NCBI GenBank assembly: GCA_020137815.1
Contig: CM035353.1
Span: 2,046,001-2,110,000, forward strand
Source: Hormiphora californensis
Lineage: Eukaryota > Animalia > Ctenophora
DNA: 64,000 bases
Reading direction: 5' to 3'
Position numbers and translations under genes: made by a program. The first letter of the stretch is position 1. The number at the start of each line of letters is the position of its first letter. The notes under the pieces are model-generated. The model was given only the letters and a program-made list of their open reading frames with translations, did not search any database and was not told the origin of the DNA. Below are positions 1,411 through 53,891 of the stretch, in pieces.

Positions 1411-1866
1411 GTGTTTAGTTCTACGTTTTGAACAAAGGCAAAACACTTCAGTTTTGTTCTGGCCGTAAGAAGTTGTTATTAAAAGATCATTACAAAATGT
1501 ATACTTTCAAAATGTATACTTTCAACTTGAATATCAATATCATAACTTTCTGGCTTTTTACTACCTTTCTCGCTCACTTCTATCACGTCCTACAGCTCTG
1601 CGACTGACACTGACACTGAGTATGACTCTCATGCTGACACTGAGTATATGACTCTCACTGACACTGACACTGAGTATGACTCTCACCGAGTAAAGTCAGT
1701 CCTTAAATAAAATTAACAATATATATAAGCTCTTTATCTTCCTCTGATATGCAATATCTGGCTCCTTCTCACTCTGATTATACTCCGATATGTTCTGAGA
1801 AGAATCATAGAGCTAGTATCTGCTGCCACACAGCTCTCTCTCTATCTCTCTAAAACAATATATAGT

Positions 1867-4800
1867 TCACGGCACACGATCCTCTTTTGTTGCATTGTCT
1901 GTAGTTATCGTGATTTCTCCCTGTTGTGGCTCAAACTTCACTGCCGCAGCATTGGCAATGACCTTAGTTCGGTGAAGTGAGTCATCATCACTAACTTCGG
2001 AGGATGAGGAGCATGAGGATCCATTACTTCTGAACTTGTAGTTTTCCAAGGGGTCTACTTTTACACCTGAAATAGAGCTGTTTAGGGGGCGATGTAAACT
2101 AAAGGATCCTCCATAGCAATTGTTTTGTTTTGATAATAGCAGTTTATAGGGCTGCTCTGTGATTCACAATCACATGGATCAGCGCATGGTTTATATCCCC
2201 CTATATCAGTACCTCGCTCTTGTAGTGGGTGGTGTTAGTAACACTGTTACTAAGGGGGGGGGTGTACTAGTGGAGGGGAGGGGTGTTGTACCTCGCTCAT
2301 GTAGTGGGTGGTGTTACTAAGGGGAGGGGGGGGGGGTGTACTAGTGGAGGGGTGATGTACCTCGCTGATGTAGTGGGTGGTGTTAGTAACTCTGTTACTA
2401 AGGGGGGGGGGGGGGGGTGTACTAGTGGAGGGGTGATGTACATACCTCGCTGTTGTAGTGGGGGTGTTACTAAGAGGGGGGGGGGGGGTGTACTAGTGGA
2501 GGGGAGGGGTGATGTACCTCGCTCTTGTAGTGGGTGGTGTTACTAAGGGGGGGGGGGTGTACTAGTGGAGGGGTGATGTACATACCTCGCTGTTGTAGTG
2601 GGGGTGTTACTAAGAGGTTGGATCCATCGCATCCTATTCTCGCTCCGCGAATAATAGGATGCCGGCCCGTTGAGAGCAAGAACTCACGTGCGCGCGATAT
2701 AAAGCACGTTTTCAGCAGATCGCGCGTGATAGACCGTTTTTGGAGACCTTTTTAGCTGACCTAGCACTACTCAAAGGTCAATTATGGCCTCATTTCGCAT
2801 CGTGATGAATCGGCGGGTATTTTCCCATACTCACAAGGCCATGACGATTCACCCAGTACCCGCAGATTGTCTCAGGACCGAGTAGGAGCTTGCAGCCAGG
2901 TCTTTAAAGAATTGCTCATGTTTAGCGTCAATTTTAACCCACTATTCCTCAAATGCTGATACTCGCGGGTATTTTCCGTAAAACTAGAGACAATTAGCTG
3001 CCAGGAGCAACAAACGAGATGCAAATCGGTTCAGTAGTTCCTTGCAGCCAGGTCTTTGAAAAAGTTTGCTCTAAAATCAATAACGCGCCGGAGGCCTAGA
3101 TGTGAGATCGATCTCGGTCGCTGCGCGACCTCGATCTCACTCAGGCATCAATGTGGCCAAACTAAGAGGGGGGGGGGGGGTGTACTAGTGGAGGGGAGAG
3201 GTGATGTACCTCGCTCATGTAGTGGGTGGTGGGTGGGGGGGGGGGGGGGTGTACTAGTGGAGGGGTGATGTACCTCGCTGATGTAGGAAGTCAGTAAGGA
3301 ATGTGACTCCAATGGCAACGGCAAAGTGAAGGAGCATTATCGTTAGTCGGAAAGGGAAGTTTTGGAATCCTATAGCTCCTACACCTTCTCCCTCCTGAAA
3401 TATAGGTGATCATGTTAGTTGTAGAAATATGTGGGGGGGGGGGCAGAAAAGCCAGGCCATGAAGCCAGATTCAACCCAGATTTCAGGGTAGGTTTGACTT
3501 TTTGGCCTTGCCCTCCCCCCAATATAAGAATGCAGCTGTTTATAATATCAGCCCTACAGCTCTACTTATACCATATATTTGGTAACCTAGCTGCTAGCTG
3601 AACCTACCACGTAACCAGGGAAACGGAGAATTGCTTCAAAACCGAGAACTGGCTCCCCTGAAAGGACCCGGAGTAGTAGTGCCAAGGAGAACCCAGAGAC
3701 CATTCCGTATCTGTTGACATACTTGCTGCCGTATAGAACGAGCACCAAGTGAGGGAAGAGTAGCACGTAGACAAGGTCACTGAAACAATGGGGTGGTGTT
3801 ACTAGGGTGGTGTTACTAGGGGACGTTACTAGGGGTTGTTGCTAGGGGGTGTTGCTAGGGGGTGTTACTAGGGGGGATGGTGTTACTAGGAGGGGGTGGT
3901 GTTACAAAGGGGGGGGTGGTGTTACTAGGAGGGGGGTGGTGTTACTAGGAGGGGGGTGTTGCTAGGGGGTGGTGTTGCTAGGAGGGGTGGTGTTACTATA
4001 GCACTCAGTTACACACACTCAAACGGGGTATGTGCCGCCAGACATAGTCAATATCAGACATAGTCAATATATTGACAGGTTATGATAGTTAGGATGGCAA
4101 TTTCTAGGCAAGATTTGATGGTTTATACCTGCAAATGACGTATAGCCCGTAAACAGATTTTACAGTTATGGCGATTACCATGGCAATAAGTGTGTTACAT
4201 ACGATTGTCACCCTTAACACCCACACTAACACTCTGAAAAGTTAATAATTAATTAATTAATTAACTATAATTAGTTATAATAATAATTAGTTATTGATTT
4301 GAAATAAACTTTAAATTTTAGAACTTTTACTTCAGAACTGTAGTTAGAACCGCAGCAACAATAAAATGACGGCCATGTAGCAACTATATATGATATAGGC
4401 TACAGTCGGATCCCGATTTACCGGCCCCCCAATTTACCGGAAGGATGAAATTCCTCCGATAAAGGAAATTAACGGTATTAGACCCCGATATACAGGGCAC
4501 ACTTTCCCTAACCATCCCTGTAAATTGGGGTACTACAATGAAGAAAGTTATTACTTACTTATCAGAGGCATGAGGGCTAAGGACTTTCTGGTAGACATTT
4601 CGTGTGAACATGGAGCTAACACCAAGTACAGAACTGTCTGTTGAACTCATCACTGCCGCAGACACCGCTCCAAGACCTGATGGGAGGGGGTTGTGGAGGT
4701 ACACAACTGATGGGGGTGCCACTTTTTAGGGGATCACGGGCGGGGAAAATATATTTGAATTCTTCTTACCGATGAAGGAGACAACTGGAGGACACAGTTT

Positions 4801-7800
4801 ACTAAGGCACAGTGGAACAGCTAGTTTGTAAGCTCCTTCCTCTAGGTTAGCTCCGTTAGCAGTCACCCAGTCCGTGTTGATAGTGATAACTCCCATGATA
4901 ACAGGGGGTATGGCAGCCAGGAAACACCCAACACCAGCACAATAGGATAGAACACGGGCTACCTATAGAAGGGGGAGGGGTTACCATGGTAACTAGGATT
5001 ATCTAGGTGAGTGTGATAGTGATAACTCCCATGATAACAGGGGGTATGGCAGCCAGGAAACACCCAACACCAGCACAATAGGATAGAACACGGGCTACCT
5101 ATAGAAGGGGGGGGGGGTTACCATGGTAACTAGGATTATCTAGGTGAGTGTGATAGTGATAACTCCCATGATAACAGGGGGTATGGCAGCCAGGAAACAC
5201 CCGACACCAGCACAATAGGATAGAACACGGGCTACCTATAGAAGGGGGAGGGGTTACCATGGTAACTAGGATTATCTAGGTGAGTGTGATAGTGATAACT
5301 CCCATGATAACAGGGGGTATGGCAGCCAGGAAACACCCAACACCAGCACAATAGGATAGAACACGGGCTACCTATAGAAGGGGGAGGGGTTACCATGGTA
5401 ACTAGGATTATCTAGGTGAGTGTGATAGTGATAACTCCCATGATAACAGGGGGTATGGCAGCCAGGAAACACCCAACACCAGCACAATAGGATAGAACAC
5501 GGGCTACCTATAGAAGGGGGAGGGGTTACCATGGTAACTAGGATTATCTAGGTGAGTGGGATAGTGATAACTCCCATGATAACAGGGGGTATGGCAGCCA
5601 GGAAACACCCGACACCAGCACAATAGGATAGAACACGGGCTACCTATAGAAGGGGGAGGGGTTACCATGGTAACTAGGATTATCTAGGTGAGTGTGATAG
5701 TGATAACTCCCATGATAACAGGGGCCGGTATGGCAGCCAGGAAACACCCAACACCAGCACAATAGGATAGAACACGGGCTACATATAGAAGGGGGAGGGG
5801 TTACCATGGTAACTAGGATTATCTAGGTGAGTGTGATAGTGATAACTCCCATATGATAGAAGGGGGAAGAGTGGGTTATATATAATCCATATTATATAGT
5901 GGTCTTATTATCATGGGGGAAGGGCCGTGTATTTTACCTACAATCCATTACTATACCTGTGGTGTTTTTGATGACAGGACACGCTGGAAATACGCCTGCC
6001 AGGGGATGCCGCCACAGATCATCATAATAAGACCATCAACCCACAGAGAGGGGTATTCTATCTCACCCAGTACGCTCTTTGTCTTGTTTACCAGGACATC
6101 ATTTTCAAGGATCGTGAAGTTCACTGTCTCCTAATTAGATGGGGGAGGGGGGTAAATTATAGCAATTGGGTGTAGTACCATGGTTGTTTGAAGGGAAAAA
6201 TTCTTGACAAGTCTGGGTAACCCATAACCGCAACCGTCTTCATCCAATGTTACCCTGGTACAATATGGTTTACTTCTCATAGTCTACCGAGTCAGGAAAT
6301 ACTGGTCCCTGATTGGCTGATAACCAGTCACGTGATCTAAATAACGAGTTCTGATTGGTTGTTTACTTAATTCGGTCGGTTCCTGCCTACTATACTGACC
6401 TGGAGGGGAGATGTCACGTTCTCATTGGTTATCATGAACGGTAGAGCCAGGATGAGTCCGACAAAGATGGAGATTAGTTGGAAAACATCCGTAAAGGCAA
6501 CAGAGTAAAGACCTGAAGAAAGATAATACCGTATATCATTATTTTTATCAACGTCTAGTTTTCTAAAATATTGACCGATTATCCTCCTCTTCTCTCCTTT
6601 TACCCCTCGCCTCTCTCGTTCTCACTCTCCATCTCGCCCTCTCTCTCCCCAGTCCCCGTTCCCATCTCCTCCTCAGTCTCTCTATGTTATAAATCTCTCC
6701 CTCAAGCTCACCCAGTCTCCCTTCCCATCTCCGCCTCTCTACATGTTAACACACACCTCTCTTCACCCAGCTTTAACATACCTCCAAAAAGGGTGTAGAC
6801 CATAGCAAACATGGCGGATACTATGATCGACGTATTCTCACTGATCAGACCCTGACAAATGACCTGGAGGGAGGAGCCCAGGGCAGCAAGGATGGCAGCA
6901 GACCAGAGGATCTCTCCGGAGAAGGCGGGGATGTACAGCAGAGATCCCAACTTTCTTCCGTATTTCACCTGATAAATATGATGTTGGGTAAGAGAGCTTT
7001 CGAGAGGGAGTAAACTGTAAAGGATGTTGAATTTTTGGTTGGTAAAGAAAGACACTTGTTATATGACTCTGAGAACATAAAATTTATTCTTAGTATAGAG
7101 TCAGTAAATAGGTTAAATGATAATATGTTCTAACCTTCCTTTACATTTGTAAAAGTGTGGGTGAGACATACCTGGAAGGGGTCGAGCATGGTGATGAATT
7201 TCATGGCTCGCATCTTCTTGGCAAAGAACAGCCCACCAATACAGAGAGATGTTGCGAAACAGAACGGGGCTTGACAGTTCAGCTGCAGGAGATTGCATTA
7301 TAAATTAGCTAAAAGTATCACAAAATTATCCAGCTAGATAACATGAGTCTCAAATGATAAAGCAGTATTCTGGAATTTCAACTTACAATTCCACCGCTAA
7401 TGACGGCTTCTGCGGCACCGTTAATGTAGCCTCCCCCTACCCATGTTGCCGTCATTGTAAAGATTCCAACCGCGTAGTTAATGTTCCTTCCTGTGTGGAA
7501 ATCGGACTAGGTCATTCCGTGGGGGGAGGGGGGGGGGGGTGTTTTCAATGTTCATTCCTAACAACACCTATACAGCTAGCCTCTATGATTGTACTAGCTC
7601 TCTATTATCTTCCTACAGTACTCACCAGCTAGCATCAGATCCTCGGTATTAGTTAGTCCAGATTCACCGTTATCTGCAGGCTGCTGTTTCTTCTTCCCAT
7701 TCATCATCTCCATTAATCTGAAACGAGGGCGCCTATCAACACAAGCTGTAAAATGATTTTGTCAAAGGGGGTGTTAGCTGTGATATATGTGGTGTATAGG

Positions 7801-9113
7801 TAATAGTTTTTGGAGATCTATTTTAATTGGCGAGGGGGTTAGAAGTAGGTTTGTAAATGTAAAAACACCGAAGTATTAAAAACTTAAAATAGTTGCGGGT
7901 CCTCAGTGCAGTAGAGATGGTGAAATTGTGTCCGGATAATGTATGAATTCAGTGTGTGATGTTTTTGAGATCATTATATGAGCTGGCTAAAGGAAAACCC
8001 TATCAAAAATAGCTTTTTTGTGAAATGAGACTTAAATTATTGATTGGGTTTCCATTTAGGGAGAGAGAAAAGGCAAGAGAATTTTGATCAGAGTAACATG
8101 TGAGGTTTTATAGTTTCGTCTGATATATATATTAGTGAGAGCGGCTAGATCATGTTCCCGCCGAAAGTCGCCTGATTTGCGCATTGTCATAGCTACTTCA
8201 TATCTTAAATCAAATGGTCCGTAAGTTTCTGATAGATCTCATCAAGAAATCTACGAAAATGATAAAGAACATATTATTTGAATGCTCGAACTGAAGGGAG
8301 CTATGACGGGAGCAACTGCAGAGCTGCTGATCTAACCGCCCCTACTATATATATAGTGTGAGGGGTGTGTGTGTGATGGGTGTGTGTGATGGGTGTGTGT
8401 GAGGGGTGTGTGTGTGTGATGGGAGGGTTTATTGCACGTATAAGTAGACGTTCACCTCACTGTAATTTACTACAGTTGAAGAGTTGCCGGGAACGTTGCT
8501 GGACCAGATTCCGAACATTCCGACTGAGCTGCAGAGATAATGTACTACCACCTGGGTATAGTCGCGGGAAATGTTGTTGACACACACAGACACACACACA
8601 GACATGAAAACTGTACTGACACACACACAGCTACACACACACTTACACACAGATATATGAAAACTGTACTCGAGAACTGACGAAAACTGTACTGGCAAAC
8701 TGACAAAAACTGACATTGATCAGAAACAAACAGAACAACAAATATTATATAATTTTTTGGATGAGTTGGACAAGTACCTACAGACCAGGAACCGACCGAA
8801 TCAGGAAATACTGGTACCTGATTGGCTGATAACCAGTCACGTGACCTAAATAGCGAGCTCTGATTGGTTGTTTACTTGGTTCGGTCGGTTCCTGCTACAG
8901 ACTAACAACCGATGTGAAGCTTCAATTAACTTTATGAATTTTTGTGATAAATATGTGGTTAATATGGACAGCTCTAATCTATATATCAAGGACAGTCACG
9001 TACCGTTTAGCGAAAAGCCCAGCAAAAAGGATGAGGAAGTAGAAGAAGATCAGGCCTCCAATACCCACCCAATCAACCGCAGGTTTAACTTCATTATCCA
9101 TCACTCCGGTCAT
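1867..9113 (-). CDS. SLC5A7: High-affinity choline transporter-like sodium:solute symporter (SLC5A7/CHT1 family), 12 coding exons
   Basis: Manual splicing gives one in-frame chain of GT-AG exons: 9113-9004 ([36 protein letters not shown]), 7717-7625, 7492-7387 ([21 protein letters not shown]), 7282-7172 ([22 protein letters not shown]), 6968-6782, 6512-6400 ([12 protein letters not shown]), 6131-5957 ([14 protein letters not shown]), 4961-4770, 4675-4559 ([16 protein letters not shown]), 4233-4129, 3779-3608 ([10 protein letters not shown]), 3393-3274, then terminal exon 2066-1867 (stop). The motifs are hallmark CHT1 sequences. Exact exon count may be 13 including the terminal exon. Confidence 0.9.
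2209..3285 (-). repeat. Donor-anchored G/C-rich minisatellite in the last SLC5A7 intron
   Basis: Variable ~55-70-bp units, each re-creating the exon end and donor (...TACAxxAGCGAG|GTAC on minus). Interrupted by the insertion at 2618-3160. Confidence 0.8.
2618..3160. mobile_element. 543-bp insertion with 9-bp target-site duplication (MULE-like non-autonomous element)
   Basis: ACTAAGAGG is duplicated at 2609-2617 and 3161-3169 and splits a repeat unit seen intact at ~2461-2500. Ends are TTGG...CCAA with only a weak TIR. Confidence 0.65.
3790..3998. repeat. GGTGTTACTAGG-type minisatellite
   Basis: About 12 variable units in an SLC5A7 intron next to the acceptor at 3780. Confidence 0.85.
4876..5851 (-). 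repeat. 136-bp x ~7 tandem array of acceptor plus first 86 nt of an SLC5A7 exon
   Basis: Periodicity is about 136 bp (ttaccatggtaactagg at 4981, 5118, 5254, 5390, 5526...). Each unit carries CTATAG|GTAGCCCGTGTT... on minus; only the last copy continues into the true exon. Confidence 0.95.
8786..8894. mobile_element. 109-bp hAT-type MITE, family B (CAGGAACCGACCGAA TIR, 8-bp TSD)
   Basis: TSDs: CTACAGAC here, TTTTATAC at 22586-22694, TCAATTAC at 23660-23768 and CAAAATAA at ~28422-28534. Further copies at ~6285-6385, 13912-14009, 26451-26559, 32431-32540, ~32993-33087, 34365-34473, ~35275-35374 and 53103-53210. Confidence 0.9.
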
Positions 9114-10372: not shown

Positions 10373-11723
10373 CGGTCATTCGAAGTTCGACTTCCCACTT
10401 TAATAGGGCTCCGATAACAGTAACGCCGTGGTGGCTGCAACGAAATTATCGAACACGGCGTCAAACAATAACCATTGTGGAATCAATAGAATTACTTTCA
10501 AATATATATTGCGGATGCCGCGGTAACCTTGGTAACGACTATCGAAATTACCCCTACCTTGCAGGCACTCTAAAACTTGCCTTGTTCGACCCTCCCCGCG
10601 ATAAAATAAAATATAAAGGGTTCGAACAAAACAATCTAAAACGTGCTATACCGCAATATGCCTCAGGTACGAGGGTTAATTTCGATACCAAGAGCCAAGC
10701 CGGTCATTCGAATTGATCTGATTAATCAATAATCGGGTAAAATCATTGGCAATGACAATTTAGCTGTAGCAATGACTCATTGCTACAGCTAACGAGCACA
10801 CCAGAATTCAATTCATTGGGAGCCAACCCGGATATAACATTCCCCACCACAAACTTACCTACAGCTGCTTTTTCCTCCGTTCATTCTTGGCGTCCAACAT
10901 CATATTACTATGATTTATAGTTGGAAGGGTGTCAATAGTGCCTCCTGCCGGTATCATGCCCACCATCATCAGATCCTCATTTCATCCTTCCATTGCTATT
11001 ATGAGACCTGCAGAGGAAGAGGGGTAATTCTGTATAGAAACAAAATGATTATTCAAATGATAACGGACAATGTTTTTCATTGTCCGACAATTACAAATGG
11101 AGAACATTTACTGATCTTGTAGAAGAGCGCTTATAGGTACTCGTATCTTGTGAGAACTGAGAGTTCCAACTCCGCGAAATAGGTCCAGCACGATGCCTGC
11201 TACTGATAGATGTAAGTGTCAGTATCATTATAAATAAACTGTCTGACTTGGCATGATGTTCACAATTTTTTAGAAATTTATAAATTCTTGGGGTTTGTGG
11301 TTTGTGTGCAAATTAATTAAAGATACATTATATAATCAGAAAATATATAATCATTCACTGCACATCTCTATGCCAATCTCACGAGTCTTCTGTTTTGATT
11401 TTTCACACTGCCAGCTGTCTCCAATAAACTCTGTCTGGCGGCCTGATCTGAGCGCACTTGAGAATCAAAGACAGAGCACTCTGACCCACACAAATCATGT
11501 CACAGACACTCTGACCCACACAAATCATGTCACAGACACCCACACTCACACTCACACAGGCTAAAAAACACAGCTTGAATGTTCGTTAACTTCTTCTGTG
11601 TCCCATCGAATGTGACATTGCAGCATTTCTCTCCTCTCCATCCTTTGGAAATGGGCGATACCCCAGCTGTACTCCATTAATCTATACCGTGTGCAAATAT
11701 CAGCACCACACAGCTGCACTCCA

Positions 11724-23870
<12,147 letters not shown>

Positions 23871-24471: not shown

Positions 24472-47123
<22,652 letters not shown>

Positions 47124-48886: not shown

Positions 48887-49041
48887 TTAACAACATACTA
48901 CTTATCATACAAATAAACATCATTCCGCCTGAATCTGTTTATACCCAGCAGAATCAATTTCATTAGCATCTTAGAAAAAAACGACATAGCAAAGAGTTAC
49001 ATATATAATCACCCAGAAGTCAGTTCTCATTGGTCAACGAC

Positions 49042-51291
49042 TTACAAAACTTTAGACAAAAACCGAAGCTCCACCTCAAGTTTCTCCGCCGTTTCATATT
49101 GTCCACTTTCAATAGCCGTTTTGATATCTCCCCGCAGCTTCTCGACTTTTTTCTCCACATCAGCCAACTCAATTCCAACCTCCTTATTAACTTCACGACA
49201 CTGCTTCTCCAGTTCCTCGCCCATGTTAACAGTAACACCCCTACCTCTAACGAGTAGAAGGTAATTGTACATGTAGGCAATATCATAATTTAGAAGCGTG
49301 CTGGTGACCCCTGTACAACTGCCACTTAGGCCCTCCACCGCAGTTTGCAGATGGGCTACTATCTTGGAGATACATTCACGGTCAAAGCCTGCTTGTTTCT
49401 CCCCTGCTTCCAAACGAACCCGTTTCAGCACCATTTGAACCCGATTTATCTCGCTGTCGAGCTCACGTTTCTCATTCTTTAACTCAGATTTCCGATCAGC
49501 TAACGATTTCACCTTGGCCGCAAGTTCACCCTCTTCGCGTACAATTCTTGCAGCTTCTGTGTACTGTTGCCGCTCAACTGCCTCATGTTTGAGGGATGTG
49601 AGGGCTTTCAACTCACTCTCAGCTAGGACAACCTCATTTTCAGCTCGGACCACGGCACGAGTTGCAGCAAACTGAGCGGAGTTTTTATCCTCTAACTCCT
49701 TTTCTAACTCGGCTGTTTGTTGGAAGAGGGCGATTAGGGAGGCGGGTGCTGTTAGGGAATCATCAGGGAGTAGGGTGCTCTGAACCTCTCCAACAACGTG
49801 CTCCTCATGCCGTGAGATCGCCTCTACAACCGAACTCTGGAGATCTGAAAGTCGTTGGGTAACCGCACTTTCAGTATCTGTAATTTTGGCGATTTGCCCG
49901 GATAACGCTTCAAACTCCTTTCGCCTTTCTCCTATCCTATCTTCCTCGGCCTTGATGGACATTTCCTTGATGTGCAGCTTTTCACTGTCTCTCTTTATCT
50001 CCTCTGCTTTACGTGCAAGTTTTGTGTCATTGTCACCCTTCTCCACATTGAGTTTGTTTTTCTCCGCTAGAATTCGCCCTTCTTCTGCCCTGAGTTTAGT
50101 TAGCCGAGCCTCTAAACCCCCGATCTCTGTCCTAATACCCGTCAATAGTTCCTCTTGGTAGGAGAGTTGTGCTGTGAAATCAGTGTCAACTGCAGCCCTA
50201 TCCGTCGCTAATGCACCCTCCAACTTCTCCAAATATTCTCGATCAATAGAGATGTGTTTTGCTCGACACTCCAGGGCGTTACTGGCATTCTCCAGTTCCA
50301 ACCGCTGCTTTTCAACTCTACTTTTACACCGTATTTCAACCTTCTTGCTGACCCCCTTGAACCTACTCCCCATTTCGCTCAGCTCAACACAATGCGACTT
50401 CAGTGACTCAACATGGGATCTTCGAGTTGAGTTTAGCTGGCTCAAAATATCACGAGTATCTTTATCCTGCCGTGGTGTCTGGTACTGCAGTACACCCCCA
50501 CCAGAAGTCTCAGCGGCACGCTTTGCAGCAGTTTTAAGGGCCTCTGCATCCTCGTATCGATCCTCCTTGAGTGCAGTTTCTATTTTAACCTTGACCTCCA
50601 CCTCATTCCTTTCTTTCCGTTGCACCGCAAGGATTCTCTGTACTGCACGGAGAGAAGTGCACTTTAGCATACTCTGAAGGTTGTCCAGATCGCGTTCAGA
50701 GGCTGAACGCTCCGGTGCACTGGCAAGGGACTCTAACTGTGCTGAAAACTCATCCACCTCCCGTTCCAATCGACCGAAGTAGTCCTGGTCGGACGAGGTC
50801 GATGAAGAGCGTGGAGAATCTTCTAACGGTGGGGGTGATGTTGGGTGGTTTTGGAAGGATACTGTAGGAAGAGGTGGGATAGAGGACGGACTTGACTGTT
50901 TTTTCCCTTCTCTCGGTGGCGTCGAAGTTGATTTTCCTTGATTGAAATTGGTATTATTTTGGGAATGTTGCCAACTTTTAGGAAGTCCTCTTTGCTGTGG
51001 GGGTGAAATGTCCAAACTGCTGAACTGGGTAGGTGGCATATCTTCATCGTGTTCAAAACTCATAGCGGGAAGGGAAGCAGGAGGGAGAGAAGAAGGAGGT
51101 TTCATGACATCAGGAGAATCAAAGTTGTATGATGTCGAGTGGGGAACATAGGACCGTGTCCCACGACTAGAATGGCCGCCCGGAGCAGTGGAACTCATTG
51201 ATTGAGTCATCGAGAACTTAGCATCGGTTTTCCCAAATATCTGGAGGCCATCGAACATGGATCCTTTGGCACTTTTATTCATGTTGCTCAT
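49042..51291 (-). CDS. Intronless 749-aa protein: S/P-rich N-terminus, long coiled coil, three UVR (UvrB/C)-like motifs
   Basis: Uninterrupted 2.25-kb ORF with heptad-rich sequence; motifs IETALKEDRYEDAEALK, KHEAVERQQYTEAARIV and IKTAIESGQYETAEKLE. Confidence 0.85.
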   Translation of the reverse strand: MSNMNKSAKGSMFDGLQIFGKTDAKFSMTQSMSSTAPGGHSSRGTRSYVPHSTSYNFDSPDVMKPPSSLPPASLPAMSFEHDEDMPPTQFSSLDISPPQQRGLPKSWQHSQNNTNFNQGKSTSTPPREGKKQSSPSSIPPLPTVSFQNHPTSPPPLEDSPRSSSTSSDQDYFGRLEREVDEFSAQLESLASAPERSASERDLDNLQSMLKCTSLRAVQRILAVQRKERNEVEVKVKIETALKEDRYEDAEALKTAAKRAAETSGGGVLQYQTPRQDKDTRDILSQLNSTRRSHVESLKSHCVELSEMGSRFKGVSKKVEIRCKSRVEKQRLELENASNALECRAKHISIDREYLEKLEGALATDRAAVDTDFTAQLSYQEELLTGIRTEIGGLEARLTKLRAEEGRILAEKNKLNVEKGDNDTKLARKAEEIKRDSEKLHIKEMSIKAEEDRIGERRKEFEALSGQIAKITDTESAVTQRLSDLQSSVVEAISRHEEHVVGEVQSTLLPDDSLTAPASLIALFQQTAELEKELEDKNSAQFAATRAVVRAENEVVLAESELKALTSLKHEAVERQQYTEAARIVREEGELAAKVKSLADRKSELKNEKRELDSEINRVQMVLKRVRLEAGEKQAGFDRECISKIVAHLQTAVEGLSGSCTGVTSTLLNYDIAYMYNYLLLVRGRGVTVNMGEELEKQCREVNKEVGIELADVEKKVEKLRGDIKTAIESGQYETAEKLEVELRFLSKVL

Positions 51292-51774
51292 GATGTTGTT
51301 GTGAAGATTGTTTCCCTTCAGGTCATAGCGGCTAATTGGGGATAGGGGAAGTTAGTGGTACATGTTAATGGAGTATTATTTCAATATTATTTGAGAACTA
51401 TTGGAGATGTAAACCAAACTGGGGAGAATGATTGAATAGATTTCTTATCATACATAACTGACTTCAATTCATTTATTTTTTCTAATTTTTCGTCATAACT
51501 TAAATAAATTGTTCGTGGTCAAATATCGCGTTTCCTAACTAAATAATTATAGTGCAATCAATTCACATGACATTTGACAATGCAATCCATACATAATATA
51601 TTATATGTATACGCTGGTCGGGAAGATTTGTAAAAAATGTCACTCCGTAAAAAGATATACAATGTACTAGTCTACCATTCAGCCCATTGCTATTCACTAT
51701 CTTAGCATGCCCGATACGATCTAGGTAAACCAAACATTTTACTATAAAATAACTGTCTGATCCCACTCCATCGA

Positions 51775-53891
51775 CTATCCCGGTAGTTTTATCGAACTTT
51801 GTGCATTTTTCACGATCCACGGATGGGCAAGAATGTCTGACAGGGTTGGTCTGAGTTTAGCGTCGACCACCAAAATCTTGGATATCAGGTCGGCTGCTTC
51901 TCGATTCACATACTCAGGAATCTCGTACTAAAATGAGTGGAATGGGAGATAAAGAAAAGGAAATATTTTAATACAACGATGGTGATCTATCTAGGTCGAA
52001 ACTTAAAACCCCACACGCTCCTATCTTCCCGCTCCTACCTTGCATGTTTTGATGTTTTCTAGTGTCGCATGAGTAGATTCCAGCTCAAAGGGAGCCTTGC
52101 CGACCAGAAACTCGTAAACCAGAATTCCAACACACCAAATATCAACGAACTCGTCATACTGAGGGGGAGATATTATTCAAGAAAACACGGTGACGTTTGG
52201 GGCTGTGGCATTGCCACCACAGTTGAATTTAATTCGAATGGCTCATTTCCCCAATACAATAAGCATCCTCAATAAATAGTTTTACGTTTTAGTTGATTAA
52301 ATATAGAGATAGAGAGAGATAATACTGAATACTTAGTCAGTTATTTCTGCATCTTCACTAAATCTAGTTAAATGATAATCTCAGTCACTGACCCAAGGAG
52401 GTGATTACGTGGGAAATTAAATTAGTTTGGTGTATCAATTAGTATCAATTAGTATCAATTAGCATCAATTAGTATCAATTAGTGTTCACCTGCTGATTAT
52501 GCAGCATTTCTGGGGGTAGGTAATCGACTGTGCCACAAAGTGTTTTCCTTCGTGAGTTGGGGGAGTGAATGGCCCAACCAAAATCTCCCAATTTCAATAA
52601 CAGCTCATCGTTAGAACCTGCAGATTTTAATAAACCCTTCAATTCAGTTTGGAAGGCATTTAGCGAGAAGCCCGGGCTGGCAAACTCCCTCCAACATAGG
52701 GGATGGTGAATTGTACCTACCTAATTTATTGTAATAGCACAAGTTTACATAGATGTTTTAGTTCAAGCTGAGAGTTCTCAGCATCAAAGTTTAGTTACAG
52801 TAGCGCTCTCCCTTGAAATTCACTCTCACCTGGCATTGTGCCCAGAAAGATATTCTCAGGTTTAAATTCACTCTCACCTGGCATTGTGCCCAGAAAGATA
52901 TTTTCAGGTTTAATATCACGATGTAGTACGTTGTGACCGTGTGTGTAGACCAGCGCCTCAGCAAGTTGTTTTATCAATGTAGCGGCCAAGGAATCAGTGA
53001 ACCGTCCCGCTTTCTTTAGATGCTTGTAAATATCGCTCTCTTTCGCGTATTCCAACACGACGTATATTTTAGCTGAGTGAACGAGGGGTTTTACAAGGGA
53101 CTAGGAACCGACCGAAACAAGTAAACAACCAATCAGAACTCGTTATTTAGGTCACGTGACTGGTTATCAGCCAATCAGGGACCAGTATTTCCTGATTCGG
53201 TCGGTTCCTGGGACCATCATCATCATGCGATCATGTGGAGAATTGGTAAAAACCCAGAACATCAATCCCCCACTTACTCGCATCATGGAAATATCCATAT
53301 AACCGGATAATATTTTGATGCCGTAACCGCCACTGAATTTCCAGTTCTCTCCTCAGCTGCTGAAGTGCCTCGTTCTGCTCAACCTCCTCCTTGTCTAGAC
53401 ACTTGATGGCAACCACAAACTTACTCTTCTTCTCCCGTGCCAGGTACACCTTCCCCATTTTACCTTTACCCAACGGCTTACCTGTAGATAGCGGACAAGA
53501 GAAGTATGAGAGATCTGTTATTGAATCCCTATTTAAAGACTCGTTTTTGTGCGAGACGATGACCCTGCTGAGGATCTGATCTTCTACTGTGAAGAGAGTG
53601 AGAAGGCACAAAACCTGGCACATTAACATTCTGAAATTACTATAGTGGGAATTGGAAGTGGGTCTAGAATTCTTTGCGTAGAGTACATGTTGAGTTGGCC
53701 GTGTGACCAAAATCTTTATTATTATTATTATCATTATTGTTATTGCATGTACCTATATCAAAGTCATCTATACTCCACGATGGTAACTTGTTCTCTTTAT
53801 TTCCTGGGTTTCCTGCTGGTGCCTGAAACTGTACACTCTTTCCTGATTGATCACCTTCAGGTTTTTTAGCAGGTCCCTTTCCTTTCAGCAT
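51775..53891 (-). CDS. Aurora kinase, 6 coding exons
   Basis: Exons: 53891-53753 (...WSIDDFDIG), 53481-53278 ([26 protein letters not shown]...[25 protein letters not shown]), 53071-52878 (HRDIKPEN), 52617-52490 ([27 protein letters not shown]), 52158-52039 ([19 protein letters not shown]) and 51927-51775 (ILAHPWI...stop). Confidence 0.92.

Follow-up and report, generated by a model that had tools for sequence, protein, structure and literature searches.

The choline transporter-like gene and its seventh intron

The window, as we call the whole stretch of 64,000 nucleotides from the ctenophore Hormiphora californensis analyzed here, carries on its minus strand a gene of the high-affinity choline transporter family (SLC5A7-like). 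Translation and tblastn with the Mnemiopsis homolog P0002, the matches of which carry PF00474, revealed 13 coding exons and a frame that is open through to the stop codon, while a Pfam search with two single exons delivered no match. Splice sites were scored on 54 introns annotated by hand in four genes: 12 in SLC5A7, 34 in XRN1, four in RNF41 and four in an Aurora-like kinase gene, which presumably encodes Aurora itself. Not counted were the XRN1 intron below 35791 (unresolved frame), the middle part of RNF41 and the initial exons of the kinase gene, while the uncertain XRN1 junction 32839/32647 was kept. The donor matrix derives from these same hand-picked introns, was applied in a leave-one-out manner and ignores dependencies between positions. 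The following features are needed to describe the locus:

1866..9113, minus strand: SLC5A7-like gene, 13 coding exons
5957..6130, minus strand: exon 7, ending in CAG; donor of 5.2 bits, the seventh lowest of the 54
5853..5956, minus strand: non-repeated first 104 nt of intron 7, for which run X6 shows just one contig
5834..5867, minus strand: relic of an older copy, in which 12 nt of acceptor tract (5856-5867) run directly into the end of the exon-derived part, as judged by alignment
4878-5852, minus strand: tandem array with a period of 136 nt, 7.1 copies and 98% matches; each unit comprises 50 nt of intron 3' end and 86 nt of exon 8 5' end
5644..5784, minus strand: most upstream copy, with AG replaced by AT at 5784-5783 and a 3-nt insertion, both in the assembly
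5098..5645, minus strand: five intact decoy acceptors, each AG/GT
4770..4962, minus strand: true exon 8, 193 nt; acceptor the same as in the decoys, own donor of 8.0 bits
2067..3273, minus strand: six copies of the exon 12 donor region in SLC5A7 intron 12, a second, donor-type array

Intron 7 is 994 nt long and consists of the 104 unique nucleotides followed by the array. The first-pass annotation had described seven stacked acceptors, five intact AG/GT decoys upstream of the true one and an exon 7 ending in CAG at 5957, and all of this was recovered, within an intact gene. It was likewise right to place the true acceptor in the last copy; however, exon 8 starts at 4962 and not at 4961. The exon-like starts follow AT at 5782 and AG at 5643, 5507, 5371, 5235, 5098 and, for true exon 8, 4962. 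Since the copies starting at 5507, 5371 and 5098 equal the true exon over the first 85 exon-like bases, the idea that single nucleotide differences tell the copies apart can be kept only in part. The expectation that decoy use brings stops or frameshifts was borne out, as all five decoy products reach a stop 31 codons past the junction.

At the 5' edge of the array, the relic would fit a deletion that removed the AG and most of the exon part of that copy. Together with the AT copy of the assembly, the two most upstream acceptors thus appear inactivated. We also asked whether the entire unique part of the intron is homologous to the repeat unit, for which shuffling gave p of about 0.01; however, the 3' ends of other introns score equally, and therefore only the 12-nt edge match is used as evidence for a relic.

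Each unit carries, in addition, a perfect 14-nt palindrome (4980-4993, with six more copies up to 5813), to which two near matches were seen elsewhere in the window. We take it to resemble the RFX X-box, and the seven copies could be a candidate regulatory cluster.

The gene that hosts the array is a working one, with exons under purifying selection. Among the 40 variant rows listed (93 more exist), 15 of the 16 exon variants of SLC5A7 are synonymous, compared to 23.6% expected from the possible changes (p about 5e-9). Exon 8 shares 63 of 64 residues with a Pleurobrachia bachei gene model and is 67% identical to the Mnemiopsis protein. It begins with valine, a residue conserved in all four homologs checked, and the GT behind the acceptor is the start of this valine codon. 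The open frame and the synonymous bias, as read from the DNA, imply a correct SLC5A7 product, and the bias suggests that the correct join of exons 7 and 8 must be made often enough to matter. In run X7, possibly an RNA run, 11 contigs were found, all less than 95% alike and thus read as paralogs. Two of these paralog-like contigs, on 5964-6047, were seen by eye to read Lys-Val, with AAG followed by GT at the same junction, so the AG/GT context may predate the SLC5A7 gene copy.

The array in DNA sequencing runs

The assembly of this window contains at least two frameshifts inside conserved XRN1 exons (45377-45486 and 44449-44700, minus strand), which are most likely assembly errors and leave the unit-specific changes of the array uncertain. 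However, the array is multi-copy in all three DNA runs examined, which stem from two studies, one of them possibly the assembly's own source. Contig depth, which gives a rough indication and does not equal copy number, is raised over the repeat unit relative to the flanking contigs by about 5x in run X2, 4-11x in X5 and 7-23x in X6. These ratios vary widely among the runs and are compatible with length variation, with the same reservation on contig depth. Furthermore, the P. bachei gene model carries codons 1-24 of exon 8 in duplicate and differs from exon 8 at one residue, so it derives from another haplotype. Since its flanks match no homolog, this model is probably a computed prediction.

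For the AG to AT change in the first copy the picture is mixed. The assembly has it, as the first-pass annotation stated; however, it is on no contig listed in X2 or X6 and reaches at most depth 10 of 1720 in X5, while contigs drop rare variants. The 3-nt insertion of this copy was likewise not clearly visible in the three runs.

The array is not merely a product of the assembly, and doubt concerns only its exact copy number and the unit-specific changes. That it is an artefact, or that the gene is dead, is hardly credible: the indel errors in XRN1 speak for the former, but the raised depth in every DNA run and the duplicate in a model with a different exon 8 allele speak against it, while the latter conflicts with 13 exons of open frame and the synonymous bias.

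Very high depth in the DNA runs was also seen for an element of approximately 100 nt with inverted ends, which lies at 6286-6385 and in many other introns and is probably a miniature transposon.

Splice site strength and duplicated splice sites in the window

The introns of the set have a median length of 263 nt, the shortest one comprising 93 nt. By the matrix, and given its small training set, the donor that would be regenerated by joining exon 7 to a decoy (CAG/GTAGCC) scores 2.2 bits, with 53 of the 54 native donors higher. The first-pass annotation had called this site a plausible donor, for which the score gives no support. It has C at position +5, found in none of the 54 native donors. 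However, G at +5 is absent from 13 of the 54 as well, including the native donor of intron 7, and one XRN1 donor is one base away from the regenerated one. The donor at the joint between units is weaker still (0.5 bits, all 54 natives higher). Each unit offers 12 GT sites, the best of which scores 2.9 bits; the GT at offset 72 reaches -4.2 bits. In contrast to these donors, the exon 8 acceptor is strong (rank 43 of 54), and its sequence is shared by the five decoys. The decoy nearest to the exon 7 donor lies 313 nt away from it, and an exon starting at the decoy nearest to exon 8 would comprise 329 nt, compared to 252 nt for the longest internal exon in the set. RNA structure failed as a discriminator: pairing is predicted to be nearly the same at the six intact acceptors (0.009-0.018 unpaired), and shuffled sequences form a hairpin just as good (z 0.03).

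Intron 7 is not the only intron of the window with a repeated splice site. Besides the array in intron 12, the following duplications at coding borders were found:

11905-13338, minus strand: 41-nt unit, about 35 copies, across the donor of the second-last RNF41 exon; GT kept in 33 further copies
40512-41390, 41658-41749 and 42074-42156, minus strand: donor duplications that open three consecutive XRN1 introns, with 29, 2 and 1 extra copies, respectively
27287-27781, minus strand: XRN1 donor repeated about 11 times in units of 47 nt; a similar-looking 25-nt array (26861-27279) comes next
46445-46555, 32940-33120, 30780-31050 and 23154-23347, minus strand: acceptors duplicated in front of exons without GT start, three of them in XRN1 and the fourth in RNF41
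52816-52913, minus strand: 48-nt duplication over a donor of the Aurora-like kinase gene; by eye, the second donor would add 16 in-frame codons within the catalytic region
11664-11755, minus strand: 47-nt duplication at the end of the RNF41 coding region, across the stop codon, where no splice site lies

Between the kinase gene and XRN1, at about 49000-51300 (minus strand), we noticed by eye a long coiled-coil-like frame that is apparently intronless.

In total, 12 of the 54 annotated introns hold additional copies of their own splice site (the donor in 7, the acceptor in 5), while 0 of 2862 control probe-intron pairs gave such a copy. In all 12 duplicated cases the reading frame uses the site that adjoins the complete exon. 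The exons behind four of the five acceptor duplications start with TG, GG, GA and GA and therefore cannot recurse, so that tolerance of decoys in this window needs no recursion.

Nevertheless, AG/GT junctions were found at six of the 12 introns with a duplicated site and at three of the 42 others (Fisher p 0.002), a comparison made post hoc as one of five tests. The source of this excess are the donor arrays, six of seven of which precede an exon starting with GT, compared to nine of the other 47 introns. Among the acceptor duplications there was no GT excess (1/5 vs 14/49, p 1.0).

The arrays also appear to prefer exon borders. Nine of the 14 arrays with a period of at least 25 in the annotated genes span a splice site while 2.6 were expected (p about 1e-4), although the random-placement model is crude and the annotation was made after the repeats had been seen. 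One candidate idea is that recombination begins in conserved exons and slips at highly polymorphic introns. For a close relative, 3.2% heterozygosity and many intronic indels are given in excerpts of PMC8527503.

Candidate routes for the removal of intron 7

With the other duplicated splice sites of the window, which settle its class, the array belongs to the mirage-type minisatellites and repeats the border between intron 7 and exon 8 in tandem. We favor, with a probability of roughly 0.65, that a single step joining exon 7 to the last acceptor removes the intron. Such mirage minisatellites have been described for amphioxus in Adh3 and the globin genes BflGb6 and BflGb9; in BflGb6, units of 150-160 bp join the intron 3' end to the exon 5' part, occur six and three times, and are spliced normally as judged by RT-PCR (excerpts of PMC3087553). 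The array in intron 7 resembles the amphioxus cases, as far as that source portrays them, in the tandem arrangement of intron 3' end and exon 5' part, in unit size and number (3-6 in amphioxus), in a splice signal present in many, though not all, copies, in diverged edge units and in the fact that either border can be affected. Here, the duplication spans the exon-intron border, with five decoys retaining AG, one reading AT (in the assembly) and one relic without AG; the inner units are homogenised (98% matches), and the 5' edge is degenerate and partly deleted. In contrast to these published cases, the host is a ctenophore, the density reaches 12 of 54 introns and the junction happens to be AG/GT. 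Furthermore, normal splicing was demonstrated by RT-PCR in amphioxus, whereas the route proposed here is inferred from the sequence and not from RNA.

According to this model, a duplication across the intron/exon border would have founded the unit, which then may have been expanded and homogenised by unequal exchange while the 5' edge decayed. Cross-exon recognition would pick the acceptor at 4962, which belongs to an exon of 193 nt with a donor of 8.0 bits, in preference to the decoys, whose exons would either end at a donor no better than 2.9 bits or extend over at least 329 nt. The last acceptor would thus be chosen because it alone is followed by a good donor at the distance usual for an exon. 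Mis-spliced products, which would stop after 31 codons, may be removed by nonsense-mediated decay. The AG/GT at the junction of exons 7 and 8 is then likely incidental. A comparable situation is known from the 37-bp VNTR in intron 7 of human F7, where, in the excerpted text of PMC1557585, identical splice sites are repeated into the intron as well and the authentic site is the one next to the exon. However, the silent pseudo-sites of F7 are on the donor side, where scanning from 5' to 3' explains the choice. Here the acceptor side is affected and, since the authentic acceptor is the last copy, scanning from upstream would pick a decoy.

Several aspects count against a one-step removal: the introns are short, the strong acceptor is identical in five decoys and the upstream-most acceptors appear inactivated. 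Short introns pose the main difficulty, since pairing across the intron would favor the nearest acceptor, the decoy 313 nt from the donor. Apparent inactivation of the two upstream-most acceptors is what would be expected if decoys carry a cost. Moreover, one-step removal leaves the excess of AG/GT at duplicated sites without explanation.

A rival scenario is leaky splicing, in which a sizeable share of transcripts would use decoys and be destroyed, so that expression of the transporter would be tuned, or simply reduced, by the number of repeats. The stop shared by all five decoy products fits this scenario, as do the short introns of the genome, the strength and identity of the acceptors, the apparently inactivated ones upstream and the depth ratios of the runs (about 5, 4-11 and 7-23), which would be compatible with length variation. 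However, similar decoys in XRN1, RNF41 and the kinase gene suggest that leak is generally small, and splicing is undisturbed by the mirages of amphioxus in the excerpts of PMC3087553. We therefore consider a sizeable leak unlikely, if somewhat less so than the remaining scenarios. The first-pass annotation had offered two routes, strict exon definition that skips identical acceptors, which is the better supported one, and, in its headline, a recursive ladder, which finds no support given the weak donor and a GT that starts a valine codon. In such a ladder, exon 7 would be joined to a decoy and the regenerated donor spliced onward, or the 136-nt units would be cut out as GT...AG mini-introns in any order, with an identical mRNA as the result. 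For this scenario speak the AG/GT at every intact joint, a unit of the size of an ordinary intron in the set, the native donors that lack G at +5 or come within one base of the regenerated one, and the excess of AG/GT at duplicated sites. In addition, human cells spliced a duplicated AGGT segment in 6-16% of transcripts (PMC3265369), a share low enough to be read against the ladder as well. Against it stand the scores of both the regenerated and the unit-joint donor and the lacking GT excess among acceptor duplications. Furthermore, the regenerated donor arises at the correct join of exons 7 and 8 too, and its use there would skip exon 8, leaving the ladder without a built-in stop, and up to five extra steps of low efficiency would lose most transcripts. 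All in all, a recursive ladder appears improbable.

The published recursive systems point in the same direction. Ratchet points and RS-exons, as excerpted from PMC8605326, PMC8184009 and PMC6224609, share with intron 7 the juxtaposed AG/GT and the regenerated donor. They differ in that here the regenerated donor is very weak rather than of working strength, no good cryptic donor is apparent downstream, the intron is below 1 kb and a coding border is duplicated. Nor does the motif seem to be kept for splicing, as its GT starts the codon of the conserved valine. A ratchet point in Drosophila depends on a cryptic exon that has a donor further downstream (PMC8605326), for which the candidates here reach at most 2.9 bits. 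Once fly RNA has been spliced, recursive sites regenerated on it are blocked by the exon junction complex (PMC8184009). Intron gain through tandem AGGT duplication (excerpts of PMC3443670 and PMC3265369) is similar in that AGGT brackets GT...AG units of more than 60 nt. However, the segment duplicated here straddles an existing intron border without a new intron position: the unit includes 50 nt of existing intron, and the protein aligns to its homologs without a new break. A productive use of the copies is highly improbable. It would either repeat one membrane helix in frame in steps of 72 nt, using the weak GT at offset 72, or trans-splice a spliced leader onto left-over acceptors. The P. 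bachei model has 24 codons twice, and in a close relative 56% of long reads carry a spliced leader (PMC8527503), but that model is probably a computed prediction and the offset-72 donor scores -4.2 bits. Re-splicing might finally act as a safety net that filters surviving duplications, those with AG/GT being repairable after a wrong first cut, which would make the SLC5A7 intron a natural multi-rung recursive ladder born from a minisatellite; this idea we regard as doubtful. Our literature searches found no report of mirage minisatellites in ctenophores and no paper that combines recursive splicing with tandem duplication and AGGT.

Taken by itself, the SLC5A7 locus is an ordinary mirage of a type already known from amphioxus and adds a ctenophore to this class. 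The window suggests that mirages are common in this genome, with 12 of 54 introns affected, and concentrated on exon borders. Gene models in such a genome are prone to error, and the public Pleurobrachia model appears to be wrong already. The excess of AG/GT keeps alive the idea of re-splicing as a filter on surviving duplications. Should an early-branching animal with short introns dependably find the one site next to the exon among identical ones, this would be a natural test of exon definition outside the bilaterians.
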